A program made the translations under genes and the position numbers. From IMG/VR virus record IMGVR_UViG_2617270939_000002: a DNA stretch of 34,039 bases; one strand, given 5' to 3'. Shown here one piece after another: positions 13,443 through 34,039 of this stretch. The notes under the pieces were generated by a model. That model did no database searches. It was not told the DNA's origin and saw only the letters and a program-made list of their open reading frames with translations. Within the stretch, counting starts at the first letter, position 1, and each line of letters begins with the position of its first letter. Origin of the DNA: a virus. Lineage: Duplodnaviria > Heunggongvirae > Uroviricota > Caudoviricetes.

Positions 13443-13829
13443 ATGTCGTGTAGGCGTAATATCCCACGATGGAAAGCATACAGGACATTTTTATGCAAAG
13501 TCAACACTAACGTGCAAAAAAGTGTCGCTACCGTAACCCGTACCAGACCCGCCACACATTCGCCACCAGACACATTAGCCAGGGCGTAAACCTTTTCTGG
13601 CTTGCCGGGCAGATGGGGCATAAAGGGCCGGAAATGCTGTTCCGCAATTACGGTAAATACCTGGCTGAATACGACGGGAAAACCGCCATTTCAGCAGCTC
13701 TGTAGCGTCGTGAGTATTTCAAAATGTTGGACGGAATCAGGACGTTAGAGGGACCACGATATGCACGTAAAATGCACTTGAGGCCTTTCAAAAAAGACAA
13801 AACATTAATATTCAATAGGTTAAGCATTA

Positions 13830-13864
13830 TTCGGACACGGGTTCAACTCCCGCCAGCTCCACCA
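13830..13864 (+). other. 3'-terminal fragment of tmRNA (ssrA)-like sequence ending in CCA; att core, not an intact RNA gene
   Basis: TTCGGACACGGGTTCAACTCCCGCCAGCTCCACCA matches the E. coli ssrA 3' end as I recall it (one difference); upstream sequence does not match the ssrA body. Confidence 0.7.
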
Positions 13865-13899
13865 AATATTGATGTACTGAAGTTCAGTAAAGTCTACTA

Positions 13900-13932
13900 A
13901 GCCCGCACAGCACAAGCTCTGCGGGCTTTTTT
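13900..13932 (+). terminator. Rho-independent terminator following the ssrA-like 3' end
   Basis: agcccgca-N12-tgcgggct followed by TTTTTT. Confidence 0.65.
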
Positions 13933-14030
13933 ACGTCTATTGTAGTCTAGTGAGAATTGCTGAGAACTACGAGTTATGGCACCCTGAATGGGACCCACGA
14001 AGATGGGTCCTAAAATCGAGGGTCCCAAAC

Positions 14031-15260: not shown

Positions 15261-15542
15261 CTCTCCCATGATGGATTAACTATCTTGATTTAGTTAAAGA
15301 ATTAATAATCACACCATTAACCTATGTGGACTAAGCATAGCCATTTACAAATGGGGACATTGAGTCCACATAACGAAAGCTGTCGGTCATATCAGCTAAA
15401 TAATTCACATCTCTTCTCGATTATCATACACCTCGAAGATCTACCAAATTCGCTCTAATCAATGATAAAACAGTTGAATTCGGTTAAAATTTGATCAATT
15501 TTATCCTCTACATTGTATTGAATCATCCATGAGGTTTCGTGC

Positions 15543-17099
15543 ATGGCTAGCGAAAATGACAAAAATCATAGAGTTAGGGTCGCGCAGTACTTGAGGATGT
15601 CTACCGACCATCAGCAATATTCTTTACATAATCAGTCCGAATATATCAAAGATTATGCTGAAAAGAACAATATGGAAATCGCTTATACCTACGATGATGC
15701 AGGTAAGAGCGGAGTCAGTATCGTAGGCAGGCATTCTTTGCAGCAGTTACTTAGCGATGTAGAACAAAAGAAAATAGATATACAGGCTGTATTATTTTAT
15801 GATGTGAGCCGTTTTGGTCGTTTTCAAAATAGTGATGAAGCGGCATATTATTCCTTTCTATTTGAGAGAAATGGTGTAGATCTTATATATTGTTCCGAAC
15901 CTATACCCACTAAAGATTTCCCTTTAGAGTCCTCTGTTATACTGAATATAAAAAGATCTAGTGCTGCATATCACAGCAGGAATTTATCTGAAAAGGTATT
16001 TATAGGGCAAGTAAATTTAATAAAGCTTGGTTATCATCAAGGCGGTATGGCTGGTTATGGGCTGAGACGTCTTTTAGTAGACGAAAATGGCATAGCTAAA
16101 GAAATATTGAGTTTCCGCAAAAGAAAGAGTATTCAAACAGATAGGGTAATATTAATTCCGGGACCAAAAAATGAAATAAAAATTGTAAATAGAATATATG
16201 ATCTCTTTATAGATAATAACGTCCCAGAATTCATTATTGCTGAGAGATTAAATGAACAGAACATACCTGCAGAAAATGGAACATTATGGACTCGTGCAAA
16301 AATACATCAAATTTTGACAAATGAAAAATATATTGGAAACAACATATATAACAAAACCTCATCTAAATTAAAAAGTAGGCTTGTAAAAAACCCCAAACAT
16401 GAATGGGTTAGATGTGACAAGGCATATAAACCTATTATTTCAAAGAAAAAATACAATAAAGCTCAAGAAATAATTCAGCTCCGATCCATTCATTTGACTA
16501 ATGAAGATCTATTAGAAAAACTAAAACAAAAATTAGAATCTAATGGAAAACTATCAGGCTTTATCATTGATGAAGATGATACAGGCCCTTCATCTTCTGT
16601 TTATAGAACCCGATTTGGTGGTCTTTTAAGAGCATATACTTTGATTGGTTATAAGCCAGAACATGATTACAGCTATCTCAAAATAAATGAAGCACTAAGA
16701 TCATTTCACTCAGAGATAATTGAGGATTTTAAGGGTGAAATTTTAAAAAGTAACTGTCATATAGACGAGTATAAATATGCCCCAATGCTTTACATCAATG
16801 ATGAGTTTTTAATTTCCGTCCTTGTTACTAAATGCATACATATGAAATCAGGTAAACTTAGATGGAAAGTCCGGTTTGATAACTCACAGAAAGCAGACAT
16901 AACAATTGTTATACGAATGAATTCACAAAATATTTCACCTCTTGATTTTTATATCATACCAAAGATTGAAAACGAATATAATAAAATGTGCATGACGGAA
17001 ACAAACAACATTCGATTAGATCTCTATAGATTTGATAATCTTGATAAACTTCTACAAATTATTACTCGCATGAAAGTGAGGGAACTATATGCTGCCTGA
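15543..17099 (+). CDS. Large serine recombinase (resolvase/invertase catalytic domain plus recombinase and zinc-ribbon domains)
   Basis: VAQYLRMSTDHQ catalytic serine motif near N-terminus; 518 aa; AT-rich. Confidence 0.85.
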   Translation: MASENDKNHRVRVAQYLRMSTDHQQYSLHNQSEYIKDYAEKNNMEIAYTYDDAGKSGVSIVGRHSLQQLLSDVEQKKIDIQAVLFYDVSRFGRFQNSDEAAYYSFLFERNGVDLIYCSEPIPTKDFPLESSVILNIKRSSAAYHSRNLSEKVFIGQVNLIKLGYHQGGMAGYGLRRLLVDENGIAKEILSFRKRKSIQTDRVILIPGPKNEIKIVNRIYDLFIDNNVPEFIIAERLNEQNIPAENGTLWTRAKIHQILTNEKYIGNNIYNKTSSKLKSRLVKNPKHEWVRCDKAYKPIISKKKYNKAQEIIQLRSIHLTNEDLLEKLKQKLESNGKLSGFIIDEDDTGPSSSVYRTRFGGLLRAYTLIGYKPEHDYSYLKINEALRSFHSEIIEDFKGEILKSNCHIDEYKYAPMLYINDEFLISVLVTKCIHMKSGKLRWKVRFDNSQKADITIVIRMNSQNISPLDFYIIPKIENEYNKMCMTETNNIRLDLYRFDNLDKLLQIITRMKVRELYAA

Positions 17100-17985
17100 A
17101 AAAAATGAATTCCCAATAATTCAAATTGAGATTGCAAAAATAAAATTTCTTAACCCACGAACAAGAAATAAGTTAGTGCATGAAGAAATAAAGGAAAGCA
17201 TAAAAAAAAGAGGATTAAGCAAGCCTATAAGCGTAAGAGCTATTGATGAAGGCGATTTCAAATATGCTTTAATTTGTGGTCAAGGGAGAATAGAGGCTCT
17301 CGTTGCATTAGGTGAAACTATTATTCCAGCAATTATAAGAGATGTATCAGAAGAAGATGCTTACGTTATGAGTTTAGTTGAAAACATTGCAAGGAGAAGA
17401 CCACGTTCTAATGAGTTATTACAGGTGATTAAAGACATGAAAATCAGAGGACTTTCAGACTCCGAAATAAGTGAGATTACTGGATATTCATCGAACTGGG
17501 TGAGCAGTATTAATATGCTACTTGATAAGGGAGAGCATAAACTTCTCTCAGCAGTCGAACGGGGTAATTTGCCTCTGTATCTCGCAGTGCAATTTGCAAG
17601 ATGTGAAACTGAGGAAGCACAAGATATTCTTACCGAAGCATATGATAAAAAATTAATAAAAAGTCGGGACATTATAAAGATAAAACACATTCTAAATCAA
17701 AGAACAGTTGGGAATAAAGGTGCAAAAGCAGCCGGATTTTATTATCACAAACCATCAAAAAGGATGACTGCAGAGGAGTTGATTGAGCTTTATGAAAATA
17801 GTATCGCTGAACATAAATCTGTTTATAACAACTCAAAATTCATAAAAACCAACCTACTAATAGTAAATGAGATTTTTAACATCATAATGATGAATAAAAG
17901 CTTTCAACATATACTTGAACAAGAGAATCTTTCAGAACTACCATCTCAGATATTAACCCCAATAAACAAAGAGGTATTAAAATGA
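17089..17985 (+). CDS. ParB-like N-terminal domain protein with HTH (paralog 1)
   Basis: ISVRAIDEGDFKYALICGQGRIEALVALGETIIPAIIRDVSEEDAYVMSLVENIARR matches ParB/Spo0J N-domain pattern; 11-nt overlap with recombinase. Confidence 0.7.
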   Translation: MLPEKNEFPIIQIEIAKIKFLNPRTRNKLVHEEIKESIKKRGLSKPISVRAIDEGDFKYALICGQGRIEALVALGETIIPAIIRDVSEEDAYVMSLVENIARRRPRSNELLQVIKDMKIRGLSDSEISEITGYSSNWVSSINMLLDKGEHKLLSAVERGNLPLYLAVQFARCETEEAQDILTEAYDKKLIKSRDIIKIKHILNQRTVGNKGAKAAGFYYHKPSKRMTAEELIELYENSIAEHKSVYNNSKFIKTNLLIVNEIFNIIMMNKSFQHILEQENLSELPSQILTPINKEVLK

Positions 17986-18878
17986 TTCAGATACGTTTTG
18001 GCGATAATTTTATTTACCTGGAAACTAATAAGTTAATTCCATCTAAGGAATTATTAGAAAACGTAAAGCGAAGCCATAAATATCATCAAATAGTTACCTC
18101 TATCGAAAGCTTAGGTATTATTGAACCAATAATAGTATTCTATGACAAAGATAAAGATGTCACTAAGATACTTGATGGCCATTTAAGGGTTGAGGCTTTA
18201 AAAGACTTAGGTATAGAAAAAGCTCCATGTATACTTTCGAGCATAGATGATGCTTTCACTCCTAACAAACAAGTGAATCATATAAATGTAGTTGAAGAAC
18301 ATAGAATGATAATTAAGTCTCTGGCAAAAGTATCAATTGAAAAACTTAGTGCTGCTTTGGGCATATCTGTTGATGCCATAAAAGATAAAGCGAATGTGAT
18401 GAACGGCATAGATCCAAGTGTAATTGCGAAACTTTCTGATAAACCTATACCTAAGGCTACATTTGACGTTTTGAGGAAAATGAAGCCAATTCGCCAAATT
18501 GAAGCAGTCGGTACAATGATTAATTTTGATAATTATAGTAAAAAATTTGCAATGAGCATCTTGGATGCAACACCGGCATCGATGATAGTAAATAAAGGGA
18601 AAAACACTCCCTATAAAAAGGATATAAAAAAAACCATACTTCGTCTGGAACAAGAAATGGCAACAACTTCGGAAGAAACGAAAAAGCTTCAAACCGAGTA
18701 TGGTTCAGATATGTTGAAATTCGTTATAATCCAGTCATATATTAATAAATTACTTGGCAATTCTAAAGTTCTTCATTGGTTCTTAGAAAACGAGGTTGAT
18801 TATCTTAATGAGTTAAAAAGAATTTCTAGAATAAATTCTTTGGATGATAAGACTCTTACTGAAAACAGCAAGTCATAG
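17982..18878 (+). CDS. ParB-like N-terminal domain protein with HTH (paralog 2)
   Basis: IIEPIIVFYDKDKDVTKILDGHLRVEALKDLGIEKAPCIL...; ATGA overlap with paralog 1. Confidence 0.65.
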   Translation: MIQIRFGDNFIYLETNKLIPSKELLENVKRSHKYHQIVTSIESLGIIEPIIVFYDKDKDVTKILDGHLRVEALKDLGIEKAPCILSSIDDAFTPNKQVNHINVVEEHRMIIKSLAKVSIEKLSAALGISVDAIKDKANVMNGIDPSVIAKLSDKPIPKATFDVLRKMKPIRQIEAVGTMINFDNYSKKFAMSILDATPASMIVNKGKNTPYKKDIKKTILRLEQEMATTSEETKKLQTEYGSDMLKFVIIQSYINKLLGNSKVLHWFLENEVDYLNELKRISRINSLDDKTLTENSKS

Positions 18879-19532
18879 TCATGTTTTATATAGCCTAAAT
18901 AAACCAAGAAGTATACTTACACAACGACCTTCACGCCGAAGAAGCTGTCAGATACGCCAGCAACCAAAGCATTACGTTTAAGTGTCAGTCATTGATACGA
19001 AGGGATAACTGCGTATCAGCAGCCGGACATTGAGTCGAATAAAGGCTGGTAGAGAGGGACAGTTCTGTGTCACCGGGAGATTCGTCAGAAACATCAGCGG
19101 CAGAACAGATGAACCAGCAATTGGTAGTGCACAGAAAACTCTCCAGTATTTAATTATTCAACTTAACACTAAAAAAAATCACATATTTAATATCATAATT
19201 TTTCTTTGGTCTACGTATGCGAGAGTTATTGTGGCTTTAACCGGGTATTAGGAGTCGTTTCAGATAAAAGATGTTCTTCGATTCGACTGGACTTGGTAAT
19301 AGCAATAAGTAATCGTTAATATTGAAGGACGAAAGGCTACTTCAAAACAAAGTAACCTTTCCAATATTCCCATCTATGGGACAAGTGGTACATTAACTGC
19401 ACATAGTGCAGGATACATATGACATAAAACTTTTTATTTATGGCATACATTATAAATAACTTGTATTTTATGAATGTCAATAGGTTCTTGTTTAATACTT
19501 TTAAAATAATTAATTGATTGTTTTTATTATAG

Positions 19533-19552
19533 CTTCGCTTGTACAAGCGAAG
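19533..19552. repeat. Perfect 9-bp inverted repeat around a central TA dinucleotide (CTTCGCTTG-TA-CAAGCGAAG)
   Basis: Read directly; the 2-nt spacer argues for a DNA-level protein-binding or crossover site rather than an RNA hairpin. Confidence 0.6.
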
Positions 19553-19587
19553 ATCCTATTGTTCTTGAATGAATAATGCCAATTATA

Positions 19588-19631
19588 AGAGAAGCAAGGG
19601 CTAACTCTGCGAAGCCGCTGCGCTTGCTTCT
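19588..19631. other. GC-rich stem-loop (10-bp perfect stem gagaagcaag/cttgcttctc, 24-nt structured loop) inside an AT-rich ORF-free gap
   Basis: Read directly; followed on plus strand by a C/T-rich tract. Confidence 0.5.
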
Positions 19632-20612
19632 CCGGTTTCCCCTTGCTTTTCTTCCCTTCGGTTAGAAAAGAAAAACCTGGTCTTTCTCTTTCAATGTCTG
19701 CACATTTACTACAACAGATTAGACAATCGCAACTATTTATTTTATATGGAAAACTAGTGCTTAAATTGCAGCTCTCATTTTTATCAATCATTTTGCATAA
19801 GATAAATTTAAGTTTATATACCAAGGCATCCCGTTAGTTTTTACACGTAGGTAAACTAATAGTCAAAATCGAACTTTGAATTGTAGATTCTTTTAATTTA
19901 ACTCTATCCATCCGGTTAGAGGTAAAGGGAGGTTCATTTCAAGATATCATTGAACACAGTTCCAGATTAATATTATCAAAGAATTGAAAAAGATAATTAT
20001 TATTGCAATCCGTTAATGAGTCCACTTCAATTTTCCGTTCTTCTTACAGCGTTCTGAACAGTTAAACATATGATAGCTATTTAAAACCTTCGGTAATCTT
20101 ATCCAATACGGACTTGTCTGGTTTGATAATTACCAGAATCACACTATGCTCTTCAGTCTAATTTGTCAGTGATAAGGAGATCCGACCTATCGAACTTGCG
20201 TCATTTCCTAAATTTAGTGATTATAAATGTGGTTATCTATGGTCTTGTTGTGAAGATGTAGGCTGGAATTATCATGACGAACTGCAGCCTACATAAGCCG
20301 ACAGTACGGCTTTGATCGAATCATTAACTCTTTTATCATCTCAGGAACTGTGCAGACATTCCAGTTCAATTTTATAACGTTCAGTAAAAATTTAAAAAGG
20401 TGACAGCCCATGATCTCAATTGCAGACAATCAACCGTCTTTGATGATCATGGGTATATAAGTTTAACAAGATGTCTTCATCTCATGTGATTAAAATATAT
20501 AACAACACTAATTTAAAAATCGATTCTTAACTCTTCCAAAATATCACCCTTTATATTTCATTAAATTAATATCATAACTACACATACTAATTAGATAGTG
20601 TGTTAATTAAAT

Positions 20613-22739
20613 TCATCTAACTGACTCAATGATCTTTTGTTCTATAACTCGCCCACCTTGCTTTCCAGACAAAGGACCAATTAGTACTTTAAAGTCGGCA
20701 TAGTCATCTGCCTCAGGCCTATGCTCTATAATAACAATTGCATTGAATAATTTAGATTTTTGATATATAAAATTCAGCACCTTCGAAGCCGTCTCAGAAT
20801 CAAGTCCAGCGACAGGTTCATCAATAAACAATATTTTGTTTGTTTTTCTGGACTTAGATAGTATTTCACATAATTTTATTCTACGCATTTCACCACCTGA
20901 CAGGGACTGCGTTTTTCTATTAAGTTTCAAATGTGATATTCCAAGATAATGGATAGTTTCAAGAATAGTATTAATCTTAGTGTTATTAAAAAAAGAGCTT
21001 AACTCTTTCAACTCAGTATCATATACATCTATTATATTCATACCATTAATCTGAGACTTTACTTCATCTATATTGTGGTCAAACAGTTTACCCTCACATT
21101 TATGACATGATATGTAGATATCCTTTTCAAAACCCCTTTCATATTTTATCACGCCCTTACCTTCACAAACTTTACATCCACCAAGTTTGTTTGGAAGGAA
21201 ATACTCTATATCTAATTTTGTTATATCGGAGAAAAATTCTGCAATTAATTTATTCAAATCCGTGATAGTTGCGACAGTAGAACGTCCTGTATATGATGAC
21301 AATTTTTGGCTTATATAAATCGAATCGGTAAGACTACAAATAGCTTTAGCTAAAGATGATTTCCCCGATCCGGAGATTCCAGAAAAAACAGTAACACACT
21401 CTTTAGGGATACGTATATTTTGATTAATGATGTTATTTTTATTAAGCCCTTCAAAATAATAGTAATCAGATATATTATTTTTGGGATTGAGGTTCCTTTG
21501 CGGCTGAATTTTTTCTTTTTCACAAATTTCCCCACCAGAAGAACCAGCGTATTTACCAACATGGATTTGCTGATCAGCAAGATCTATGAAATACTGCGAG
21601 TGCTCTACTAAAATAACTGTGTTTTTTTCTGATAATTTTTTTAGCTTTTGAAAGATAACTTCAAAATCGACAGGGTTAATTTGGGATGATATTTCATCGA
21701 TAACAATCAGAATACCTGTTGTATTAGATGTTAAAAGCCTGCTGAAAATAAGTTTTTGTATTTCCCCCCCAGAAAGACTGGGAATTGAACGAGACAAATT
21801 TAAATATCCCAATCCCATATTATTTATTGAGGACAACACTCTAATTAATACTGAGTCACCTATAGTTTTTTTCAGGGTATTACATAATTCAGATATAGGA
21901 GATAGTAAAAATTCATCAAATGTAAATCCTAAAACATCAAGTTGGGCTGTTTCTTGGTTAATTCTGCTTCCATTACAAAATGAGCAATTTTCTTCCTTTT
22001 TATACTTTGAATTGTTTTGGCTCCGTCCTATATTCGAATTAGCAAAAGACATTACGCCTTTATAAAAAGCTCTTCTTTGCTTCGTTTTTCCTTTGTGTTT
22101 AAATCTAAAAGATAATTTCTCAGCGCTTTCTCCATATAGTATTAGGTTTTTCTTTTCAAGTGATAGTGAATCAAAAGTATCATCTACTTTTATATTATTT
22201 TTATCACAATAGACCATAAGTAATTGGTGATAATAATCAGATAACTCACCAGTCCGCCAACATAAAAATGGTTTTTGATCTAGTCTACATTTTTCATTAA
22301 TTAATTCAGATTCATCCACACTAACTATCTCGCCAAGGCCTAAGCAGTGTGGACATTCATTTCTATAATTGTTTATTTTTAATTTATCATAATTAGGTAC
22401 TGCTACGTTTCTTTTGATTTTTAAAGATGACAAAGCTTGAGCTATATTCAGATATGAATATATAGTTGAACGAGGGTTGTTATTTGTGTTTCTTTGTGGT
22501 ATCGCAACAGCGGGAATTAACCCACTGAAATTTGCAACTTTATAATCACTTTCATTCAAATAACCGTTTTCTACAGCATCAAACTCATCTTTGCATAATT
22601 GATAAATTGATGAAAATGCTAAAGAACTTTTTCCTGCGCCCGAACGGCCATAAATAGCGGTTATTGTATTAAATGGTATAGTAACATCTAAATTTTTTAA
22701 ATTATGGGTGGCTATTCCCTCAAAAATGATCTTATTCAT
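20613..22739 (-). CDS. UvrA-like double-ABC ATPase with zinc-finger insertions (708 aa)
   Basis: Two Walker A motifs (GRSGAGKSS, GISGSGKSS), two ABC signatures (LSGGEIQKL, LSGGEMRRI), several CxxC pairs; AGAGGA RBS; ATG overlaps upstream stop as ATGAATAA. Confidence 0.85.
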   Translation of the reverse strand: MNKIIFEGIATHNLKNLDVTIPFNTITAIYGRSGAGKSSLAFSSIYQLCKDEFDAVENGYLNESDYKVANFSGLIPAVAIPQRNTNNNPRSTIYSYLNIAQALSSLKIKRNVAVPNYDKLKINNYRNECPHCLGLGEIVSVDESELINEKCRLDQKPFLCWRTGELSDYYHQLLMVYCDKNNIKVDDTFDSLSLEKKNLILYGESAEKLSFRFKHKGKTKQRRAFYKGVMSFANSNIGRSQNNSKYKKEENCSFCNGSRINQETAQLDVLGFTFDEFLLSPISELCNTLKKTIGDSVLIRVLSSINNMGLGYLNLSRSIPSLSGGEIQKLIFSRLLTSNTTGILIVIDEISSQINPVDFEVIFQKLKKLSEKNTVILVEHSQYFIDLADQQIHVGKYAGSSGGEICEKEKIQPQRNLNPKNNISDYYYFEGLNKNNIINQNIRIPKECVTVFSGISGSGKSSLAKAICSLTDSIYISQKLSSYTGRSTVATITDLNKLIAEFFSDITKLDIEYFLPNKLGGCKVCEGKGVIKYERGFEKDIYISCHKCEGKLFDHNIDEVKSQINGMNIIDVYDTELKELSSFFNNTKINTILETIHYLGISHLKLNRKTQSLSGGEMRRIKLCEILSKSRKTNKILFIDEPVAGLDSETASKVLNFIYQKSKLFNAIVIIEHRPEADDYADFKVLIGPLSGKQGGRVIEQKIIESVR

Positions 22740-23814
22740 ACTTTCCTCTACACCAATCACATTCAGGATCACGTGGAACATCTTGGACGTTAAAAGATAA
22801 ACTTCTAAGACTAAATTCGACTCTTTTATTTTCTTGTTGCAAGTGATCTACTTTCCCGGCAAGTAATTTTATAGCGTCCAAGCTTGCAAGGCTTGCAGCC
22901 AGACCTGATAGTGGTGAAAATGAACCTAATTTTCGTTTTACCCGGTGCAATTTCTTCACATTAACAAGGTCTTTGCTATTTATTTTTCCTAAAAATAGGT
23001 TAAAACAATTAAAGCATGCTGACTTAAATGGAATAATTGTCTGACCGATAAGGGTTTGATGAAGATTATATCCCCCGCCAACTATATGTGGGATATTATG
23101 AATCATACTAAAGAGGGCGATTATTTTACTGGTGTAATCCACATTAGGTTCATCAGCGCAGTTTATTATCAAATCTATATCAGAGGGTAGAATATTTCTT
23201 TTAAAAAAATCATCATCGATAATGTCATTGATAATGTCAATCTTAATATCTGGAGATATCTTTTTCAAAGAGTTGAGTAACGCTATATTTTTATCAGAGT
23301 TAATTTCATCCTCGAAATAAAACTGACGATGTAAATTACTTATATCTACATTATCGTGATCTACAAATATTATCGAACCAACATTGCAATGAGCAAGATA
23401 CGTTGCCACATTACTACCGACTGCTCCAATACCTACAATCATTACTTTTGATTTTTTAAGATTAATTATACATTCTAAAACCTCACTGGTGGTATGACAG
23501 TAGTCTTCAAATGTATTGATCATTCTATATTGTTCAGTGACAAGCTCTGCAGGGTATTGGCAATCTTGATCGATAATTATATTGTTTTCATTCAAAAACA
23601 AAGCTAATTTTTCAAGTTGTTGAATATCGATTCCTGAATAATTTGCTACAATTTCTTGAAGAGAAGTTTGCCCATCAAACATCTTTAAGAGTTCAACTAT
23701 ATTTGGAAAGTTGATTTTTATTTTTATACTTTCTCTAATATTGGATTTAAAAAACTCTACAGTATCATCATTTACGACGATACCAATACTTTGTCGCAGT
23801 CTAAAATTATTCAT
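22732..23814 (-). CDS. E1-like adenylyltransferase (ThiF/MoeB/MccB family) with PqqD-like N-terminal peptide-binding domain, paralog B (alternative GTG start at 23832)
   Basis: KVMIVGIGAVGSNVATYLAHCNVGSIIFVDHDNVDISNLHRQ nucleotide-binding motif; N-terminal LLKMFDGQTSLQEIV; C-terminal CFNC...CDWC. Confidence 0.8.
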   Translation of the reverse strand: MNNFRLRQSIGIVVNDDTVEFFKSNIRESIKIKINFPNIVELLKMFDGQTSLQEIVANYSGIDIQQLEKLALFLNENNIIIDQDCQYPAELVTEQYRMINTFEDYCHTTSEVLECIINLKKSKVMIVGIGAVGSNVATYLAHCNVGSIIFVDHDNVDISNLHRQFYFEDEINSDKNIALLNSLKKISPDIKIDIINDIIDDDFFKRNILPSDIDLIINCADEPNVDYTSKIIALFSMIHNIPHIVGGGYNLHQTLIGQTIIPFKSACFNCFNLFLGKINSKDLVNVKKLHRVKRKLGSFSPLSGLAASLASLDAIKLLAGKVDHLQQENKRVEFSLRSLSFNVQDVPRDPECDWCRGKYE

Positions 23815-24931
23815 TACAGATTTTGCATCCACTTTGTTTTACCAATTCAAAATTAGTCATTTTGCCTTCGTTTGGAAGGTATTCATACCGACTATTTACA
23901 TATGAAAATGCTGAATCATCCAACAGGAAGTGAATTAATTTCATGCAACTTAGATTAGCTGAAAAACCATTCATCATTGCTAATCCACCAGGCCCTCCTG
24001 GAATATAATTATCATAGACAGATTTTGAAAGGTCCAGTTGAGGATTATTGACTATACTATATACAGGCTTCCATCCTTTTAATGCCTTTGAAAACGTATT
24101 TTGGGCACAATCTATACAGGGTGTATGTGGAGGGAATATTAATTCTCCTGAACTCATTAAGTGGGCGTCAAATCCACCTGATACATACAGCGGAATAGCT
24201 CTTGCTTGTGCATATCTACCAAGTTTTAAAGAAGTATGACCTATATAAGGCTCATCACAAGTATTAATAATCAGATCTGTATCATCAGAAATGATAGAGG
24301 ATAGATTAGTAGTAGGTATAAGTTTTTCAAAATGTTTTGTTATTATTACTCGACTATCGATCCAACTCAAAAATTCTGACAGGACATCTACCTTTGGTTT
24401 TCCGATTTTCTTATAGTTATAATAACAATGCCTTGCTGCATTTGACTTTGAAAGGGACTTATAATCAACCAAAACTATATTTTTAACACCTGCGCGGACA
24501 AGTATTTCTATAATTTTGGCTCCTACAGCTCCACACCCAAATAAAACAACCTTTTTGCTCTCCAAGATATGTTGAGTTTCTACACCAGGTCGTTCAAGGA
24601 CAAAATCGTCCCAAAATGTAATTTGTCGTGAAAAACGAGGTTCAATATCGCAAATGTTATTTACATCATAAATAAAATGTTGATTTAGTAAAAAAGCAAT
24701 TAGTTTATCGACATCTTTTGAGCGTAGGGACCCCATCTCAGTAACTATATCATTTATAGTTTTTATACCATCAAGGCTGGCAATAAATCGAGCGACATTT
24801 TTATTAGTTTTTATTTCTAATCTATCACGCGTTGTCATCACATGAAATGTGAGTTTGACATTATCAGTATTATCTTCATTCGATATAAAAATATCCACAG
24901 TTTCTTTTATTTTATATTTTTTGGAGTCCAT
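23807..24931 (-). CDS. E1-like adenylyltransferase (ThiF/MoeB/MccB family) with PqqD-like N-terminal peptide-binding domain, paralog A
   Basis: KKVVLFGCGAVGAKIIEILVRAGVKNIVLVDYK motif; N-terminal FIASLDGIKTINDIVTEMG; C-terminal CIDC...CKIC. Confidence 0.8.
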   Translation of the reverse strand: MDSKKYKIKETVDIFISNEDNTDNVKLTFHVMTTRDRLEIKTNKNVARFIASLDGIKTINDIVTEMGSLRSKDVDKLIAFLLNQHFIYDVNNICDIEPRFSRQITFWDDFVLERPGVETQHILESKKVVLFGCGAVGAKIIEILVRAGVKNIVLVDYKSLSKSNAARHCYYNYKKIGKPKVDVLSEFLSWIDSRVIITKHFEKLIPTTNLSSIISDDTDLIINTCDEPYIGHTSLKLGRYAQARAIPLYVSGGFDAHLMSSGELIFPPHTPCIDCAQNTFSKALKGWKPVYSIVNNPQLDLSKSVYDNYIPGGPGGLAMMNGFSANLSCMKLIHFLLDDSAFSYVNSRYEYLPNEGKMTNFELVKQSGCKICNE

Positions 24932-25610: not shown

Positions 25611-26156
25611 TTGAAGACCAGAAATCGTTGCCTAAGCGATATTCTTAAAGCGTCGGCGGAACGTTCAGACAAACCCACTGGAGCTGTGCTACAGCATCTT
25701 ATTGGAGCCAAACTCCAATTGCGCTTTCCCAATGTTAAAATCGGCAGTGACAGAGCCAATGCAGCTGACTTACACACTGACCGTGAGGGTGATTTTCAGG
25801 TGGGTACTACTGCATTCCACGTGACCACCGCACCTATGGAGAAATTGATTTCGCGCTGTGTCGAAAACAAACGTGCAGGCTACAGGCCGGTCATCCTAAC
25901 TCTTGAAAGCAAAGTCATTGCAGCACGCCAGATGGCTGATAACGTTGGTATGTCTGAACAGATAGCCGTCCAGGCAGCCGAAACTTTCATCGGTAACAAT
26001 ATTGAAGAGATTGCTATCTATGACGGCGATAAAATCCGTGAGGGTCTCGCAAGACTGATACGTACGTACAACGTCCGTATCAATACTATCGAGATAGATA
26101 AATCCCTTATGATTGATGAGCCTCGTTGGATCGTTAACTTACTGACCGACTCCTGA
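25611..26156 (+). CDS. Hypothetical protein, possibly 5'-truncated gene remnant (TTG start in ORF track), in a segment of E. coli-like GC content
   Basis: 181-aa ORF without a convincing start or RBS; composition differs from flanking AT-rich DNA. Confidence 0.4.
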   Translation: MKTRNRCLSDILKASAERSDKPTGAVLQHLIGAKLQLRFPNVKIGSDRANAADLHTDREGDFQVGTTAFHVTTAPMEKLISRCVENKRAGYRPVILTLESKVIAARQMADNVGMSEQIAVQAAETFIGNNIEEIAIYDGDKIREGLARLIRTYNVRINTIEIDKSLMIDEPRWIVNLLTDS

Positions 26157-26701: not shown

Positions 26702-27142
26702 ATGAAAAAACAAAACCACTCAACCCTGACAAGTTACCTCTCTAAAACAAAAAAGAATACAGACCTCTACCGCCTGTATAACCCGCACTTCTCAGTATTC
26801 TGTAAAAATAGCACTGAAGATCATGATTTTTATCTTAATTATTTTTCCAGACATATGGTGACGGAAAGAAACATTCTGACCATATTTGCTATCCATACCT
26901 TTTTCTCTTATGGCATGGACAAAAAAGAGACCATAAAAGCCTTTACTCGTTTCCTTAAAGAGGAGAATAACGACGCTTTTTATCAGTCATTTTCTTTTCG
27001 TGGCTGCAATATCATTTACACAAACAAAAAAAGAGAAGTGAAAGAGATCTCATGGTTTTCCTTTTCACGGATCTATGACGAGATCGTTAAGATAAAAGAA
27101 TATGAATACAACAATAATACCTGGCACAAAATGGCCGCTTAA
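26702..27142 (+). CDS. Hypothetical protein (146 aa), AT-rich, preceded by a strongly AT-rich upstream region
   Basis: ATG with AAGGAG RBS. Confidence 0.55.
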   Translation: MKKQNHSTLTSYLSKTKKNTDLYRLYNPHFSVFCKNSTEDHDFYLNYFSRHMVTERNILTIFAIHTFFSYGMDKKETIKAFTRFLKEENNDAFYQSFSFRGCNIIYTNKKREVKEISWFSFSRIYDEIVKIKEYEYNNNTWHKMAA

Positions 27143-27156
27143 AAAAGGAGCCCCCC

Positions 27157-28110
27157 ATGAGTAACTATACAGAAGATAATTTATTTGACAGCATATCTAA
27201 AAAAGACGTCCAGAATTGCATTGCTGCAGGCATTGACATTAACACACTAAATGAACACGGTGAAAACGCCCTTTTCGGTTGCGACAGTATCGGGGCTTTA
27301 AAAGCTATGATTGAAGCAGGCATAGCGCTGAACCATACAGATTGTTATGGTAATAATGCCCTGTTTAGCAGAAAAAGCCCACGAGCACTGGGGCTATTGA
27401 TAAAATCAGGTATTAACGTTCATCACAAAAATAATAAAGGCCTGTCCTGTCTTCACTGGCAGCACTACGACATAGATTGTGCGGAACTCCTCATTAACGC
27501 GGGCGTTGATATCCACAGCACAGATAATGAAGGTCAAACGCTTCTTTACAACCTCCACGATCATGACGTCTTTGATTACTGGGTAAATAAAGGGTGTGAC
27601 ATAAACCACAGAGATTATAATGGCAAAGCGGTGCTGGACCTTCCGACTGACGACGAGTGGTGGATATATGATTTCAGTATTAATGCCCTCAAACGCCATG
27701 TTGACAGAATAGACAGCACACCAGTTTTATTTAAACATATTTCAACTGAGGCGTTGCCTCTGATTGCTTTGCTTCATGAAAAAGGGCGTAATATCCTTAT
27801 CGCTGAACACTGTACCTTCGCATTATATGTCAAAAACATGAAGTCCTTCTTTACCTCACTGAAAAAATATACCGATATCAGTCATGTTCAGTTTTATAAT
27901 TGTTATCATGACAGACATATTGGTGTCTATACTGGTATTGAGACAGTAAAATGGTTTATTCGAAATGGTATCAGAGTGGACGACGATATACTGAGACAGC
28001 GTGCTGACTCTGATAAAATTTTTGACTATATAAGCGGAAGAGAGAAAAAAGATTTTCTCAAAATCATGAAACCAGAAATCACCCATGCGCCGAAGAGAAA
28101 AAGAATGTGA
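27157..28110 (+). CDS. Ankyrin-repeat protein (N-terminal ANK repeats, unknown C-terminal domain)
   Basis: Repeated ...G(I/V)(D/N)(I/V)N..(D/N)..G..AL(F/Y/H)... units (NEHGENALF, DCYGNNALF, NNKGLSCLHW, DNEGQTLLY, DYNGKAVLDL). Confidence 0.75.
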   Translation: MSNYTEDNLFDSISKKDVQNCIAAGIDINTLNEHGENALFGCDSIGALKAMIEAGIALNHTDCYGNNALFSRKSPRALGLLIKSGINVHHKNNKGLSCLHWQHYDIDCAELLINAGVDIHSTDNEGQTLLYNLHDHDVFDYWVNKGCDINHRDYNGKAVLDLPTDDEWWIYDFSINALKRHVDRIDSTPVLFKHISTEALPLIALLHEKGRNILIAEHCTFALYVKNMKSFFTSLKKYTDISHVQFYNCYHDRHIGVYTGIETVKWFIRNGIRVDDDILRQRADSDKIFDYISGREKKDFLKIMKPEITHAPKRKRM

Positions 28111-28174: not shown

Positions 28175-28207
28175 ATAAGTAAGCCATTCAGCCAATGGCT
28201 TACTTAT
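28175..28207 (+). terminator. 14-bp perfect inverted repeat followed by T-run; terminator after ANK gene and/or oriT-like inverted repeat upstream of mobC
   Basis: ataagtaagccatt-cagcc-aatggcttacttat then ttttatttt. Confidence 0.5.
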
Positions 28208-28307: not shown

Positions 28308-28697
28308 ATGAATAATGACATAACAAGACTATCAAGGCGTGGAAAATTCCATACTGACAAACTTCCGCCTGATGAAAGACGAAGCCACTGCGTCAGTGTC
28401 AGATTAAATGAAGAAGAATTAACTATTCTCGACAGTAAAAGAGGCCAGTATAAAAAAGGGGAATGGTTGAGAATGGCTTCCCTGAACAAACTCCCACCGG
28501 TTCTGCCCGAAATAAATCGCGAAGCATGGATTAAACTCGGCAGCCTTTCCCAGGATTTAAATTACCTACTGAATCATCTTGACAAGAAAAGTCCTGACAG
28601 CGAACTAACCCGTACAGAACTCTTTGCCCTGCGCAGACAAATCAAAACGCTTCGGGATCACCTTATTCCCTCAACATTTCTGGAGCAAGACCGATGA
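28308..28697 (+). CDS. MobC-like relaxosome accessory protein (ribbon-helix-helix)
   Basis: RRSHCVSVRLNEEELTILDSKRGQYKKGEWLR pattern; ATGA coupling to relaxase. Confidence 0.65.
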   Translation: MNNDITRLSRRGKFHTDKLPPDERRSHCVSVRLNEEELTILDSKRGQYKKGEWLRMASLNKLPPVLPEINREAWIKLGSLSQDLNYLLNHLDKKSPDSELTRTELFALRRQIKTLRDHLIPSTFLEQDR

Positions 28698-29953
28698 AAG
28701 GCATGCAGAAAATAAAAAGGGGTAAACAGTTTGCAGGAGTGGTGCTTTACAGCCTCAAATCCGGTCCACACCACAACGTTATGCCTTATGTCATCGGTGG
28801 TAATATGATCGGAAGTTCGGTGGCTGAGCTTATCAGTGAGTTTGAAATTTCTAAACAATTGCGTCCCGATGTCGCCAAACCCGTCTGGCATAATTCACTT
28901 CGCCTGCCAAAGGGAGAAACACTGTCAGCCAGACAGTGGGCGGCATTCGCCGACGATTATATGACCCGGATGGGGTTCACTGAAACGCACCTTCGCTGTT
29001 ATATCCTTCACGATGATACCGACGGGCAGCATATCCATATCATTGCAAGTCGCATTAACATGGCCGGTGGAAAGCTGTACCTGGGGAAAAATGAAAATCT
29101 CATCAGCACCCGCATTATCAGCGAACTGGAGCGAATACACGGACTCACTGAAACAACACCTGCAACCAGCAGTCGCCCTCAGGCTAAAAGAAAACCCTCA
29201 CGCAATGAGCTGATGATGGCAGAACGAACAGCAGTTCCCTGCCCTAAGTCTCAGTTGCAGACCCTGATTGATAATGTCTTAACGCATCGTCCCGATTTAC
29301 TGACTTTTATCGACATGCTGGAACAGAAAGGTGTGACCTGTAAACCCAATATCGCGTCGACCGGAAAAATGAATGGATTTTCATTTCAGTACCAGGGTAT
29401 TGCCTTTAAAGCGTCTCAGCTTGGAAAAAAGTATGGCTGGTCTTCTCTGCAAACGCAGATTGATTTTACACCAGAGCACCTGGCCTTACTGAAAAAAGAG
29501 CAACAACAGACTGTACCAGTGCCAGTGCCAGTGCCAGTGCCAGTGCCAGTGCCAGTGCCAGTGCCAGTGCCAGTGCCAGTGCCAGTGCCAGTGCCATCAT
29601 GCGAGCCTGAAGAACAGGTTGCAAACCGGGAAACGATTCTGGAGAAAATCCTTCAGCTTGAAGAAAAAATTCGTCTGGAAAGACAACAGGAAACAGTGGG
29701 TGTCATTCAACTCAGGAGCAAACTGCACAATACAGCTCGTCAGATACCCCGCCAGCGTCGTCTGCATTCGTGGTTTGTATTGCTCGGCCATATTGTGGCA
29801 CTTCTCAGGCGCAGGGGCATGTCTCTGTTACATGCCACTGCACATCCTTTCCACCAAATCCTGCACCTGCATCTTCTGACACCCTGTCATTCCATGACAA
29901 CAAATCCCATTAAAGAACAATTAGTTAAAAATAACCCCCATCCTGCACCATAA
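28694..29953 (+). CDS. Mobilisation relaxase (MobA/VirD2-like) containing a (VP)14 linker
   Basis: HLRCYILHDDTDGQHIHIIASRINMAGGKLY histidine-triad region; follows MobC-like gene. Confidence 0.75.
   Translation: MKGMQKIKRGKQFAGVVLYSLKSGPHHNVMPYVIGGNMIGSSVAELISEFEISKQLRPDVAKPVWHNSLRLPKGETLSARQWAAFADDYMTRMGFTETHLRCYILHDDTDGQHIHIIASRINMAGGKLYLGKNENLISTRIISELERIHGLTETTPATSSRPQAKRKPSRNELMMAERTAVPCPKSQLQTLIDNVLTHRPDLLTFIDMLEQKGVTCKPNIASTGKMNGFSFQYQGIAFKASQLGKKYGWSSLQTQIDFTPEHLALLKKEQQQTVPVPVPVPVPVPVPVPVPVPVPVPVPVPSCEPEEQVANRETILEKILQLEEKIRLERQQETVGVIQLRSKLHNTARQIPRQRRLHSWFVLLGHIVALLRRRGMSLLHATAHPFHQILHLHLLTPCHSMTTNPIKEQLVKNNPHPAP
29514..29597 (+). repeat. Hexanucleotide microsatellite (GTACCA + 13 x GTGCCA) encoding (Val-Pro)14 inside relaxase
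   Basis: Read directly from sequence. Confidence 0.95.
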
Positions 29954-30138
29954 GTTAACTAATCCATATTTTAGTGATAGTCAATAAAATATTGATCGTT
30001 TATATAGATCGATAATCTTGTTATGATAGTTATAACCTATTAACAGAGATCCATCGATCGGTACAAGCAATTTTACTAAAGCGGATCATTCATCGAAAAT
30101 GTTCAAAAATACATCACCTTAAATCAGGCCACGGAGTC

Positions 30139-30414
30139 ATGATGGATAATAAAACGATTAGCTGCCCCTTCTGCTTTACACAAAGCCCGCACGGCGTGCG
30201 GATTTGCAAAGGCTGCCATGCAAAAGTCGCCTACGGTGAGAGTCCGCTCAGTGTGGCATTCCTGTTTCAATTCGTGGCATTAGCTCTCGCCTGGTTAGTA
30301 TTTTCATTGACCGGCAGCACTCCTGTCTCAGTCATTACGTTTTTTGCCAGCGTCATTATTCTTATCTGCATTATTAAAAAGAAATATGCAGACAGAGTTG
30401 TTTTTATACGGTGA
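30139..30414 (+). CDS. Small membrane protein with N-terminal zinc-ribbon (CPFC...CKGC) and two TM segments
   Basis: GGAG RBS; ORF. Confidence 0.5.
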   Translation: MMDNKTISCPFCFTQSPHGVRICKGCHAKVAYGESPLSVAFLFQFVALALAWLVFSLTGSTPVSVITFFASVIILICIIKKKYADRVVFIR

Positions 30415-30463
30415 TATTAATTTCATACCACCGCAAACATAAAAAATTAATATGAGAGAACTT

Positions 30464-30850
30464 ATGAACAGATTCATGATTTCTGTGTTTTTTATTTCTG
30501 CTTTCCTTATTTCTGGTTGTTCAACATCAGGCAACCAGCATCTAAAAAAAGAAACAGCACAAAGTCTGCAGTCGAAAATTATAAAAAATAAAACAACGAA
30601 ATCAGAAATCATTACCGCATTAGGTGAGCCCGAAACCAAAACTACACTTGATAGTGGCAATGAAGAATGGACTTATTCGATGGATAACAATCAGTTTGAT
30701 GCCACCACATTCATTCCAGTGGTCGGGTTGCTGACAGGCGGTTCACAGACGCAGGCCAAAACGCTGGAAATCGAATTTAAAGGCGAAACGGTCAGTAAGT
30801 GGACGATCTCTGAAAACAACAGCAAGATGAAAACCGGCCTTATTCAATAA
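30464..30850 (+). CDS. Lipoprotein (signal peptide with LISGC lipobox)
   Basis: MNRFMISVFFISAFLISGC...; GAGAG RBS before ATG at 30464. Confidence 0.6.
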   Translation: MNRFMISVFFISAFLISGCSTSGNQHLKKETAQSLQSKIIKNKTTKSEIITALGEPETKTTLDSGNEEWTYSMDNNQFDATTFIPVVGLLTGGSQTQAKTLEIEFKGETVSKWTISENNSKMKTGLIQ

Positions 30851-30876
30851 CGTACTCTACAGTCTGGGATTATTTT

Positions 30877-31197
30877 ATGAAAACATATGCATTTACCACA
30901 CTCATTGCGTCCATTTTTTTGCTGAGTGGCTGTACCGGTGAACCGTCTGAGCAGGATATTTACACTGCGATGAATAAGGTCATGGAGCAGACGAATGCCA
31001 TCGTTAAATCCATAGCAGGTAAAGATGTCCCGAAAGACGCACTGCGGGAATTAAAATCTGTCAAAAAGCATGACTGCGAAAAACTATCGGATAAAAGCTA
31101 TAAATGCAATGTAACAGCTGTTGTCGATAACGAAAAACGCACAGCGGCTGTCACGCTGATCAAAACGGATGATGGCTGGCAGGTCATTGATAAGTAA
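30877..31197 (+). CDS. Lipoprotein (signal peptide with LLSGC lipobox)
   Basis: MKTYAFTTLIASIFLLSGC... Confidence 0.6.
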   Translation: MKTYAFTTLIASIFLLSGCTGEPSEQDIYTAMNKVMEQTNAIVKSIAGKDVPKDALRELKSVKKHDCEKLSDKSYKCNVTAVVDNEKRTAAVTLIKTDDGWQVIDK

Positions 31198-31333
31198 GAC
31201 CACAGTAAAACAATCCCGCCAGGCAGGACACCAGACCGGTGGCTCCTGCCTTTTTAATGCCCGGTAATGTCTTGCGGGAAACGACTGCTTTTATGTCACT
31301 CTGCCATCCCCTGTCCAGTACGTATCCGCTGCC

Positions 31334-31759
31334 TCACAGCCTTTTCCTGACCACGGATCCTGGTGGTGTATAAGCCAGAGAACGTGCAATGCGTTTCTTT
31401 TCATACTGTGCCAGTAAATCAGCATAAATGTGCTCTGCTTCATCCAGATTGCCTGAAATATAATTCACGAGCGAATTCAGGCAATGCAGTAATGTGTCAC
31501 TGTTTGCGAGTTGCCTGAGCAGAGGGGCCTTCAGGGTAGAAACGACACCCATAAACATCTGCATGATATTATCAACGTGATAACACGAATTGCGATATTG
31601 CGCCCGTGAATAAAAATACTTCAGATGGTATCCAGCGAAAAGCACATAAAGTTTTCTGTAAAAAATATTGTTATTAACACTGTCGCGATGCTGTGTTATA
31701 TATTTATCAACAACAAATATAAACTTTTCTTCCTGAGAAGAAACACAAATATTACTCAT
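31334..31759 (-). CDS. Hypothetical protein (141 aa)
   Basis: ORF only. Confidence 0.45.
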   Translation of the reverse strand: MSNICVSSQEEKFIFVVDKYITQHRDSVNNNIFYRKLYVLFAGYHLKYFYSRAQYRNSCYHVDNIMQMFMGVVSTLKAPLLRQLANSDTLLHCLNSLVNYISGNLDEAEHIYADLLAQYEKKRIARSLAYTPPGSVVRKRL

Positions 31760-32214
31760 AACCCTCTCCTTTTTTGTTTTTATAATTAAGTACTATCAGC
31801 TTTAAAATTTAAATCAATACAAAATTGAAAATATTTTATTTTAAAATGACAACTATTTATTCTTTTAATACTGGAAACAGCTTACGCTGTTGCAATGTTG
31901 AGTCCGATCGATTGCATTACCACTTCCTTTTTTCAAAAGCCAGGTAGTTTCCAGATTTCAGATAAAACCCCTTCAGGAATTTTTTTGAGAGAGTGCTACG
32001 CACCGGCTCACGCCCCCGACGACAGATATATGTAGATTATTTTTACCCGTCAGATGAAAACCCAACGTTTAATCCCTCTTGCAGCGCCGCTGAGTGCCCA
32101 CAGCACTCACTCGCTGAAGCAGAAAGGATTTTTCCGAAGGGGTTCCGGCGTGAGCCGTATTAAGTTAACGGGTAAATCATGTAGTCGGGTCCACTCTTTC
32201 GCTAAACTCAGCAG

Positions 32215-32305
32215 TCTGAATCTCTGCGCGAAGCGTATTTGTGCTGAGAGCTAAACCCAACTGTCTGAACTCCTGCGCGAAGCGTATTTCTACTGACAGT
32301 TAAAC
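32215..32305. repeat. Two tandem 42-bp direct repeats (period 49 bp, about 80 percent identical)
   Basis: tctgaatctctgcgcgaagcgtatttgtgctgagagctaaac / tctgaactcctgcgcgaagcgtatttctactgacagttaaac. Confidence 0.7.
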
Positions 32306-32466: not shown

Positions 32467-32748
32467 GTGGGTGATACATGGTTAATGCTGGAAGAGCTAC
32501 GTTTTGTCATGGAGCAGTTCGCTCAGGCAACTAACGTTGGGCCGTTGATGCAGCACCTTATCCGCTTCTGCGTTTATGCTGGCGGGCAGCGACCGTTTGA
32601 AATGATTGCCAGCCAATGGAGCGCGATTGACTGGCAGCAAAAGACGTTACTGGTCATAGCCGATGTATCGAAAAACAAACGGGAGCACCTGATCCCATTG
32701 ACTGAATCGGCATTAAGTGAATTAGCCTCAGTGAAAGAACTGATGTAG
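32467..32748 (+). pseudogene. Tyrosine integrase internal fragment (5'-truncated, 3' end interrupted by IS insertion)
   Basis: GGQRPFEMIASQWSAIDWQQKTLLVIADVSKNKREHLIPLTESALSEL resembles start of integrase catalytic domain; stop codon created at IS junction. Confidence 0.55.
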
Positions 32749-32804: not shown

Positions 32805-33200
32805 ATGTCTAACACTAACGCCAATTTTGAGATGACCGGGATCCTGTTAGGGCAAGAAGTCCGTAAACGTAAAACTCCTCAGGAGAAGATCGCCATTATC
32901 CAGCAGACGATGGAGCCGGGTATGAATGTCTCCCATGTCGCCCGCCTGCATGGTATCCAGCCCAGCCTGCTGTTTAAGTGGAAGAAGCAATATCAGGAAG
33001 GCAGCCTCACCGCCGTTGCGGCTGGAGAGGAAGTCGTTCCTGCTTCTGAGCTTACTGCTGCTCTGAAGCAGGTCCGGGAGCTTCAGCGCCTTCTGGGCAA
33101 GAAGACGATGGAAGTTGAGATCCTGAAAGAAGCCGTGGAGTACGGTCAGTCGCGAAAATGGATAGCGCACGCGCCCTTGTTGCCAAAGGACGGGGAATAG
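32805..33200 (+). CDS. IS3-family transposase OrfA (IS2 InsC-like, HTH)
   Basis: [53 protein letters not shown]...[17 protein letters not shown]. Confidence 0.85.
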
Positions 33201-34039
33201 CCATGGTCAGCCGGACCATGGGCGTGTCGCGTGCGCAACTGTCACTGCGGATTAACCGTTCTGCCGACTGGCAGGACAGGCGCTGTAACCGGCGTAATGA
33301 AGAAGCAGACGCAGAAATACTGTCGGCTATCCTCAACATTATCAGCGATATGCCGAGTTATGGTTATCGACGCGTGTGGGGCATCCTGCGCAAGCAACGT
33401 CGCACAGAGGGACAGCCACCTGTGAATGCCAAACGGCTTTACAGGATAATGAGCGAGCATAACCTGTTGTTGTTGCATCACAAACCAGAGCGACCGAAGC
33501 TTGAACATAAGGGCAAGATAGCGGTGGCAGAAAGCGATATGCGCTGGTGTTCAGATGGCTTCGAGTTCGGCTGCGACAACGGCGAAAAACTGCGGGTAAC
33601 GTTCGCGCTGGACTGCTGCGACCGTGAGGCCATAGACTGGGCAGCAAGCACGGGAGGCTATGACAGTTCGACCGTGCAGGATGTGATGCTGAGGTCGGTG
33701 GAAAAGCGCTTCGGCGACAGGTTGCCCGACACAGCGGTGCAGTGGCTGACGGATAACGGTTCAGCGTATACCGCGTATGAAACGCGGAGGTTCGCGAGAG
33801 AGCTGAATCTGGAGCCCTGCACAACAGCGGTGAGCAGCCCGCAGAGTAATGGCATGGCCGAACGGTTCGTGAAAACGATGAAAGAAGACTATATCGCGTT
33901 CATGCCAAAACCGGATGTGAGAACAGCACTGCGAAACCTTGCAGTAGCGTTCACGCATTACAATGAAAACCACCCGCACAGCGCGCTGGGATATCACTCC
34001 CCGAGGGAATACCGGCGGCAGCGGACATCGTTAACTTAA
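33158..34039 (+). CDS. IS3-family transposase OrfB (IS2 InsD-like, DDE catalytic domain)
   Basis: RWCSDGFEF...[18 protein letters not shown]...WLTDNGS...[15 protein letters not shown]...[14 protein letters not shown]. Confidence 0.85.

Follow-up and report, generated by a model that had tools for sequence, protein, structure and literature searches.

The DNA analysed here, referred to as the window, is the 34,039-nt stretch held as IMG/VR virus record IMGVR_UViG_2617270939_000002 (Caudoviricetes). It carries a gene for a relaxase of the MobA/VirD2 type, and within that gene lies a perfect hexanucleotide tandem repeat that is read as a run of Val-Pro dipeptides. The gene and its parts are as follows.

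28694..29953, + strand: relaxase gene, 419 amino acids (aa), MobA/VirD2-type relaxase, of the HUH class by prediction, containing the repeat (from the Pfam match, invariant residues, Foldseek and dN/dS, the ratio of nonsynonymous to synonymous substitution rates)
28694..29158, + strand: predicted catalytic core of the relaxase, aa 1-155 (AlphaFold2 predicted local distance difference test (pLDDT) score 76-92, Pfam match, three-His motif HDDTDGQHIH, Y19)
29243..29509, + strand: predicted second folded domain, aa 184-272, ending just before the repeat (pLDDT 80-91; module conserved in distant relaxases)
29513..29596, + strand: hexanucleotide microsatellite, GTACCA x1 and GTGCCA x13, encoding (Val-Pro)14 (from sequence, repeat finding, shuffles and copy-number polymorphism in homologues)
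29612..29812, + strand: predicted C-terminal long helix, aa 307-373 (pLDDT 50-75; shared by the lineages with Val-Pro (VP), Met-Pro (MP) and Ala-Pro (AP) repeats)
29813..29950, + strand: extreme C-terminal tail (aa 374-419), in which conservation reaches L395 and the residues beyond vary; it includes a stretch earlier called atypical

The array was read directly from the letters and occupies 29513-29596, where a single GTACCA unit (29513-29518) is followed by 13 perfect GTGCCA units (29519-29596). Tandem Repeats Finder reported it as 29516-29596 with a period of 6, 13.5 copies, 100% matches and a score of 162. An earlier note on this DNA had given the same composition, which stands, and placed it at 29514-29597, which is shifted by +1 nt. 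The first base of the array opens codon 274 of the open reading frame (ORF) 28694-29953 (29513-28694 = 819 = 273 x 3), and GTA/GTG CCA is translated as (Val-Pro)14, which covers relaxase residues 274-301. This start, together with the Pfam match given below, bears out the note's description of an in-frame hexanucleotide microsatellite within a relaxase. Three consecutive units gave 12 overlapping matches in the window, compared with 0.00 expected from 100 dinucleotide-preserving shuffles; these head-to-tail, perfect short units, well above chance, are those of a variable-number tandem repeat (VNTR). An antisense ORF at 29466-29624 encodes (Leu-Ala)n and is a by-product of the repeat.

The identity of the enclosing gene was established from its N-terminal part. 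The ORF matched the Pfam family Relaxase (PF03432, MobA/VirD2-like nuclease) at 83.5 bits, above the cut-off of 24.6 (E 2.1e-23, aa 34-151), and Y19, H106, D108, H113 and H115 are invariant among 68 sequences of 53-96% identity. The hallmark residues of MobA/VirD2-type relaxases, an N-terminal Tyr and a His-rich motif of the form H..D....H.H, are therefore present, and catalysis is predicted. The protein scored below the cut-offs of the more specific NCBIfam models (57.5 bits against an equivalog cut-off of 250 for TraI/MobA(P), NF041893; 64 against 400 for MobB; 50 against 400 for MbpB). A phmmer search of the Protein Data Bank matched no relaxase and returned chance matches only, including the immunoglobulin A1 hinge aligned to the VP tract. 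An AlphaFold2 model was built on the 68 sequences (mean pLDDT 68.7), and its top Foldseek match was 2NS6, the relaxase domain of MobA from R1162 (probability 0.96, E 0.06, template modelling score 0.49), followed by other HUH domains, including those of MobM and the origin-binding domains of adeno-associated virus Rep.

The same model places the repeat at a domain boundary. The predicted catalytic core (aa 1-155) is followed by a flexible stretch (aa 156-182) and by the second folded domain, which ends immediately before the array. The VP tract and the residues next to it (aa 273-308) have pLDDT values of 33-44 and no secondary structure, with confident domains on either side. In a search of 1.84 billion representatives at 50% identity, homology to distant proteins nearly always stopped at about aa 252-265 of the query; the next 60 residues in 146 distant representatives are of low complexity, and (X-Pro) runs of at least three units occur in 7 of the 146. 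The earlier note had regarded the tract as a linker, and its position agrees with this: it sits where the conserved N-terminal module ends, in an unstructured segment of low pLDDT.

The copy number of the repeat was examined in Escherichia coli, where the gene is carried by 134-135 of 5426 complete genomes (about 2.5%), chromosomally every time. Counts were restricted to complete genomes, of which about 20 were read directly, with inference from match spans for the rest. Direct reading of 16 E. coli loci gave 4, 6, 7, 7, 7, 8, 8, 9, 9, 10, 11, 12, 13, 13, 14 and 18 GTGCCA units, and in 60 further rows the match spans, which change in multiples of 6, correspond to 6-14 units. Loci L004 and L005 have 8 and 14 units with 0 mismatches across 1750 flanking nt, and the same is true of L009, L011 and L012, with 11, 10 and 9 units. 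As copy number differs on identical flanks, length changes far outpace substitutions. The window (14 units) and E. coli E300010 (7 units), whose homologous relaxase lies within an smpB-ssrA...ypjA island, are likewise 98-100% identical from 28900 to 32000. Near-identical re-isolates, by comparison, have equal spans (Z217-2 and Z217-4; CX04, CX07 and CX21; ABW_A32 and ABW_A33); the mutation rate is therefore not extreme, and the locus is hypervariable between strains rather than unstable at the scale of re-isolation. Strain E24377A has a short interrupted array (GTGCCA ATGCCA GTGCCA ATGCCA), and in MB06101 the ATGCCA variant has grown to 10 units, giving (Met-Pro)n. Short interrupted arrays beside long pure ones are the expected behaviour of a microsatellite through its life cycle. 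A search of a plasmid collection gave a single match, to a 3.6-kb Salmonella contig.

Larger protein collections were less suitable for counting. In a 5.8-billion-protein database the X-Pro counts peak sharply at 5 units (40 of 120 representatives in P0001-P0120 and 64 of 120 in P0271-P0390), and many Salmonella entries in the cluster of P0040 are relaxases labelled 'partial', 273-285 aa long and stopping precisely at the repeat. Both features probably reflect collapse of the period-6 array, or contig breakage at it, in short-read or k-mer assemblies. Public allele lengths are therefore unreliable, which is why counts were limited to complete genomes, and the database was dropped as a quantitative source of copy number. 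The locus is thus a trap for short-read assemblies, in which breakage, or collapse to about 5 units, leads to 'partial' relaxase annotations and wrong allele lengths. The exact 419-aa protein was absent from a 15-billion-protein collection.

Beyond E. coli, one genome per species was scanned. The same architecture, with 2-18 GTGCCA or ATGCCA units, was found in Citrobacter, Enterobacter, Lelliottia, Kluyvera, Phytobacter, Pseudocitrobacter, Leclercia, Superficieibacter and Atlantibacter. A sister lineage with 47-54% identity, represented in Kluyvera, Erwinia, Citrobacter amalonaticus and Rahnella, has (Ala-Pro) arrays of 10-22 pure units at the homologous position, written as GCTCCT x11-22 or GCACCA x10, and Erwinia tracheiphila has (Val-Pro)5 from GTCCCT. 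Salmonella diarizonae and E. ruysiae have just Ala-Pro-Ala-Pro, and the gene is intact in loci with only 2 units (VPVP in L027; APAP in L035 and L036). Across the family the number of X-Pro units runs from 2 to about 23. In more distant relatives (Pantoea, Xenorhabdus, Yersinia and others) the repeat is missing and the C-termini are unrelated. Arrays at one site thus arise from different hexamers, and it is the alternating X-Pro reading and its site that are conserved rather than the nucleotide word. This speaks for constraint at the level of the protein and against a role specific to the DNA sequence. The earlier note had held that an invariant copy number, with the repeat absent from homologues, would speak against its proposal; both parts were checked, and neither holds.

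Three relaxase paralogues were seen in Citrobacter meridianamericanus BR102 (L016, L033 and L034), with 11, 18 and 18 X-Pro units; two of them are on contigs of 5-8 kb.

The region that follows the repeat was examined because the earlier note had considered it a variable or degenerate tail. The helix predicted at aa 307-373 begins with a coiled-coil-like segment, ETILEKILQLEEKIRLERQQ, and continues into a hydrophobic and basic segment, W..LL..IVALLRRRG. Among the 68 sequences, E313, I315, K318, I319, E323, I338, L344, W360, L370 and L371 are invariant in the helix, and G375, S377, L379, H380 and L395 in the tail, which makes 15 invariant positions from E313 to L395. The VP, MP and AP lineages all have a recognisable form of the module ETILEKI.QLEEKIR...W..fL..l..LLR..G.SLLH...F, and the C-terminal architecture is unchanged in lineages that are just 47-54% identical. 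Since all alleles read have the same stop and share this module with its invariant positions, the C-terminal region is not degenerate, and the module is intact and conserved as far as residue 395. The description as variable does fit the last ~25 residues (396-419), which overlap the sequence quoted in that note, differ between lineages and are nearly identical among E. coli alleles. The tail from aa 376 to 419 has pLDDT values below 50. With the C-terminal regions of other relaxases as a guide, it is a reasonable guess that the C-terminal module docks a helper's coupling protein or serves in oligomerisation.

Selection on the gene was assessed among the E. coli alleles. A dN/dS of 0.12-0.18 shows purifying selection over codons 1-273, and every allele read has an intact ORF with the same stop. 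The homologues examined are likewise all open to that stop, in agreement with the earlier expectation that a change in copy number would alter the length of the linker without a frameshift.

The best-supported reading of these observations, and in our judgement a likely one, is that the array is a microsatellite prone to slippage, which encodes a proline-rich, length-tolerant interdomain spacer. The unstructured or extended X-Pro spacer would tether two parts to each other, the N-terminal module (aa 1-272, with the predicted HUH core and the second domain) and a helical C-terminal module (aa 307-395) that is specific to the lineage. Replication slippage would add or remove whole GTGCCA units, giving alleles that differ by Val-Pro dipeptides with the frame kept, and selection would act on the alternating X-Pro composition and the reading frame, with length just loosely constrained. 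Directly observed are the repeat and its frame, the polymorphism on identical backgrounds, the position at a domain boundary and the purifying selection on the gene; slippage, the role as a spacer and a variation in length that is mostly tolerated rather than finely tuned are what they suggest. Slippage driven by hairpins was ruled out, as the single-stranded repeat lacks hairpin potential and folds worse than shuffled sequences (z +2.55); simple misalignment therefore suffices. Loose constraint on length is suggested by the broad allele spectrum and by the intact genes with only 2 units. Three points weigh on the other side. The low pLDDT within the repeat may mean missing information and not real disorder; the long pure arrays written with different codons in several lineages could mean that mutability itself is selected; and copy numbers from short-read or k-mer assemblies are unreliable, so that the census consists of the roughly 20 directly read complete genomes and the spans.

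Other explanations were weighed against the same data. The repeat might act mainly as a recombination hotspot or module boundary at which N-terminal alleles and C-terminal or downstream modules are reshuffled between islands. Divergence changes sharply between 28700-29500 and 29600-30500: synonymous divergence (dS) among E. coli alleles falls from 0.6-0.74 upstream of the repeat to 0.01-0.13 downstream, and in these comparisons no part of the gene is better conserved than the DNA that follows the repeat, which also speaks against a degenerate tail. In sliding windows the identity of L022, L023, L025 and L032 rises across the repeat from about 80% to about 94-96%; in the Salmonella contig L015 megablast homology stops exactly at the end of the repeat, and its C-terminal module is a diverged homologue, the opposite sense to the L022-type loci. 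An overlapping gene, or another constraint at the nucleotide level, was considered as the cause of the low dS and set aside, as the conserved 3' segment runs on past the gene into the intergenic region and across the small ORFs downstream, and the breakpoints vary by locus; mosaic recombination is for these reasons the simpler reading, and the repeat may be a preferred junction. However, other breakpoints lie elsewhere in the gene (L001, about 28900; L019, about 29100), the locus is mosaic throughout, and chimeras simply stay viable at a domain boundary. Recombination is considered unlikely to be what the repeat is mainly about. A further proposal is that the repeat is an adaptive tuning device, a contingency-type locus with selected mutability, in which the length of the spacer fits the reach of the relaxase to the coupling protein or secretion channel of a helper. 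This is favoured by an island that has a relaxase and accessory gene and, in the window and in E300010, no coupling protein or type IV secretion system (T4SS) genes that could be seen, by the long pure arrays kept at one site in lineages with different hexamers, by the broad allele spectrum, and by the precedent of tolA, in which in-frame repeat number alters E. coli phenotypes in a stress-dependent manner (PMC3477136). The lineages with 2 units keep an intact gene, however, and a broad, flat distribution of lengths fits weak constraint equally well; tuning of this kind is distinctly unlikely on balance. Its fullest form, in which the X-Pro microsatellite has been selected in a family of mobilisable defence islands as a device for evolvability and rapidly retunes the reach between the relaxase and a C-terminal docking helix to successive helper coupling proteins, is doubtful to at least the same degree. 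Were it true, it would explain why pure long arrays have been regenerated as GTGCCA, ATGCCA, GCTCCT, GCACCA and GTCCCT down to 47% identity, and if spacer length affects mobilisation, the locus would offer a naturally variable handle on how helper-dependent islands dock to foreign conjugation machines.

Two further possibilities fare worse. A neutral microsatellite in a decaying, non-functional mobilisation gene would be in keeping with the partly degraded state of the island (a truncated DUF4928 restriction enzyme, an integrase fragment and IS3 at the right end) and with a dN/dS of 0.4-0.9 in the C-terminal tail among E. coli alleles, a figure with few substitutions behind it. It is at odds with an ORF that is intact in all alleles read, with the low dN/dS over 273 codons, with the invariance of the predicted catalytic residues, with an X-Pro reading preserved across hexamers and with the wide distribution of the relaxase gene across genera of the Enterobacteriaceae, and is judged highly improbable. 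Perfect tandem repeats are also a classical substrate for on/off phase variation by frameshift, and the array might alternatively be a DNA-level element, such as iterons or an array of binding sites, that merely overlaps the gene. On/off switching is excluded by the 6-nt unit, which lies inside the ORF, and the alleles differ by multiples of 6 with frame and stop unchanged; a DNA-level element does not fit related lineages that keep the X-Pro pattern and not the nucleotide word. Taken together, this pair of explanations is hardly credible.

The length-tolerant spacer has counterparts in known systems. In the work of Zhou, Michiels & Aertsen 2012 (PMC3477136), the in-frame repeat of E. coli tolA is described as variable among strains, as changing spontaneously in clonal populations and as at least partly functional at all lengths. 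Both cases are in-frame repeats inside an E. coli protein-coding gene with a copy number that is highly variable among strains, but tolA is a core envelope gene for which, in the same source, synthetic variants of 2 to 39 copies were assayed (PMC3477136). The relaxase array, by contrast, is a perfect 6-nt X-Pro microsatellite in an accessory mobilisation gene. TonB has a proline-rich (Glu-Pro)n/(Lys-Pro)n spacer that spans the periplasm, and resembles the relaxase as an enterobacterial protein with an alternating, extended X-Pro spacer between N- and C-terminal functional domains; the relaxase differs in being a cytoplasmic DNA-processing enzyme. To our knowledge the TonB spacer is neither a perfect DNA microsatellite nor a strain-level VNTR. 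With in-frame variable repeats known from tolA and X-Pro spacers from TonB, the relaxase array is a fairly ordinary in-frame hypervariable microsatellite.

In the contingency loci of Haemophilus and Neisseria, simple-sequence repeats switch genes on and off via frameshift or promoter spacing. The relaxase array is like them in being an apparently hypermutable, perfect simple-sequence repeat inside a gene, with slippage as the probable driver, and unlike them in that its unit is divisible by 3, so that only the length of the protein changes. MobA of R1162/RSF1010 (2NS6) and the MobA/VirD2-type enzymes share with the present protein an N-terminal HUH domain (predicted here) with a Tyr and a three-His motif, a linker, a C-terminal module that differs between enzymes and an upstream accessory gene, whereas the similarity to solved relaxases is below detection by phmmer and the C-terminal module here is a helical segment of about 110 aa. 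The literature searched held no description of microsatellite linkers, VNTRs or proline-rich linkers in relaxases, and none of the relaxase of the ssrA island or its element.

The locus could also serve as a high-resolution VNTR marker for island-carrying strains of E. coli, Salmonella and Enterobacter. It resembles the E. coli loci used for multiple-locus VNTR analysis (MLVA) in the GECM-10 scheme (CVN001-CVN017, CCR001) in being a polymorphic 6-nt repeat that can separate otherwise identical alleles, and differs from them in its restriction to the small fraction of complete E. coli genomes given above. It does not belong to that set: none of the GECM-10 primer pairs (PMC8143711) matched the window at 4 or fewer mismatches, with one stray single-primer match, and GTGCCA occurs in the MLVA papers only within the ms09 primer.

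Upstream of the relaxase gene, two further features belong to the mobilisation (mob) module or its border.

28308..28697, + strand: accessory gene, 129 aa, with weak resemblance to NikA/MobC; stop codon overlapping the start of the relaxase gene (ATGA)
28175..28207, no strand assigned: inverted repeat of two perfect 14-nt arms around a 5-nt loop, with a T-rich run after it, between an ankyrin-repeat gene and the accessory gene

The accessory gene matched the Pfam NikA-like family below the cut-off (E 0.0014); in the E. coli records it always lies directly 5' of the relaxase and is labelled hypothetical. The inverted repeat could be a terminator of the ankyrin-repeat gene or a hairpin of the origin-of-transfer (oriT) type, and the intergenic region that holds it is only 39-97% conserved among loci.

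The surrounding window is Escherichia-like, with 13600-19670 being 98.8-99.9% identical to the ssrA-adjacent island of strains such as E24377A. A query of 13600-20600 was at least 80% covered in 425 complete E. coli genomes and adjoins ssrA where this was checked (E24377A, E300010). The association with ssrA comes from these E. coli records; a scan of the window for tRNA and tmRNA genes found none. From left to right the window begins with remnants of a lambdoid prophage, followed by a P4-type integrase (13950-15260); 3' of the mob pair are small ORFs, an integrase fragment (32467-32748) and an IS3-family element (32805-34039). As no gene for a coupling protein or T4SS was seen in the window, the island would rely on foreign machinery, and the element looks like a helper-dependent mobilisable defence island.

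Several further features were seen along the window. Immediately after the P4-type tyrosine integrase, a large serine recombinase and then two ParB/RepB-like genes occupy 15543-18878 (+ strand). The interval 20613-24931 (- strand) holds a 722-aa UvrA-like double-ABC ATPase (PADLOC mad3 match, E 2.8e-44) and then two ThiF/E1-like genes, which match PADLOC E1-E2 models (E about 1e-16 to 1e-18) and, weakly, the NCBIfam model 6A-MBL cap2_3; together these look like an anti-phage defence cassette. The 181-aa ORF at 25611-26156 (+ strand) matches DUF4928 and a PADLOC type II restriction enzyme in the C-terminal half alone (profile positions 142-306 of 306, E 5e-102) and is a 5'-truncated remnant of such an enzyme. 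The ankyrin-repeat gene (26702-28110) stands immediately upstream of the mob module; ankyrin-repeat proteins are unusual in bacteria, and every E. coli version of the island has such genes immediately 5' of its mob module, three of them in E300010 (L001 17029-19772). A non-coding 49-nt tandem repeat (2.1 copies, 84% matches) is present at 32201-32305, before the integrase fragment. In the prophage-remnant part, 7537-7953 (- strand) is a full-length match to the Rfam cspA thermoregulator (141 bits), at a place where cspG is annotated in the E. coli records.

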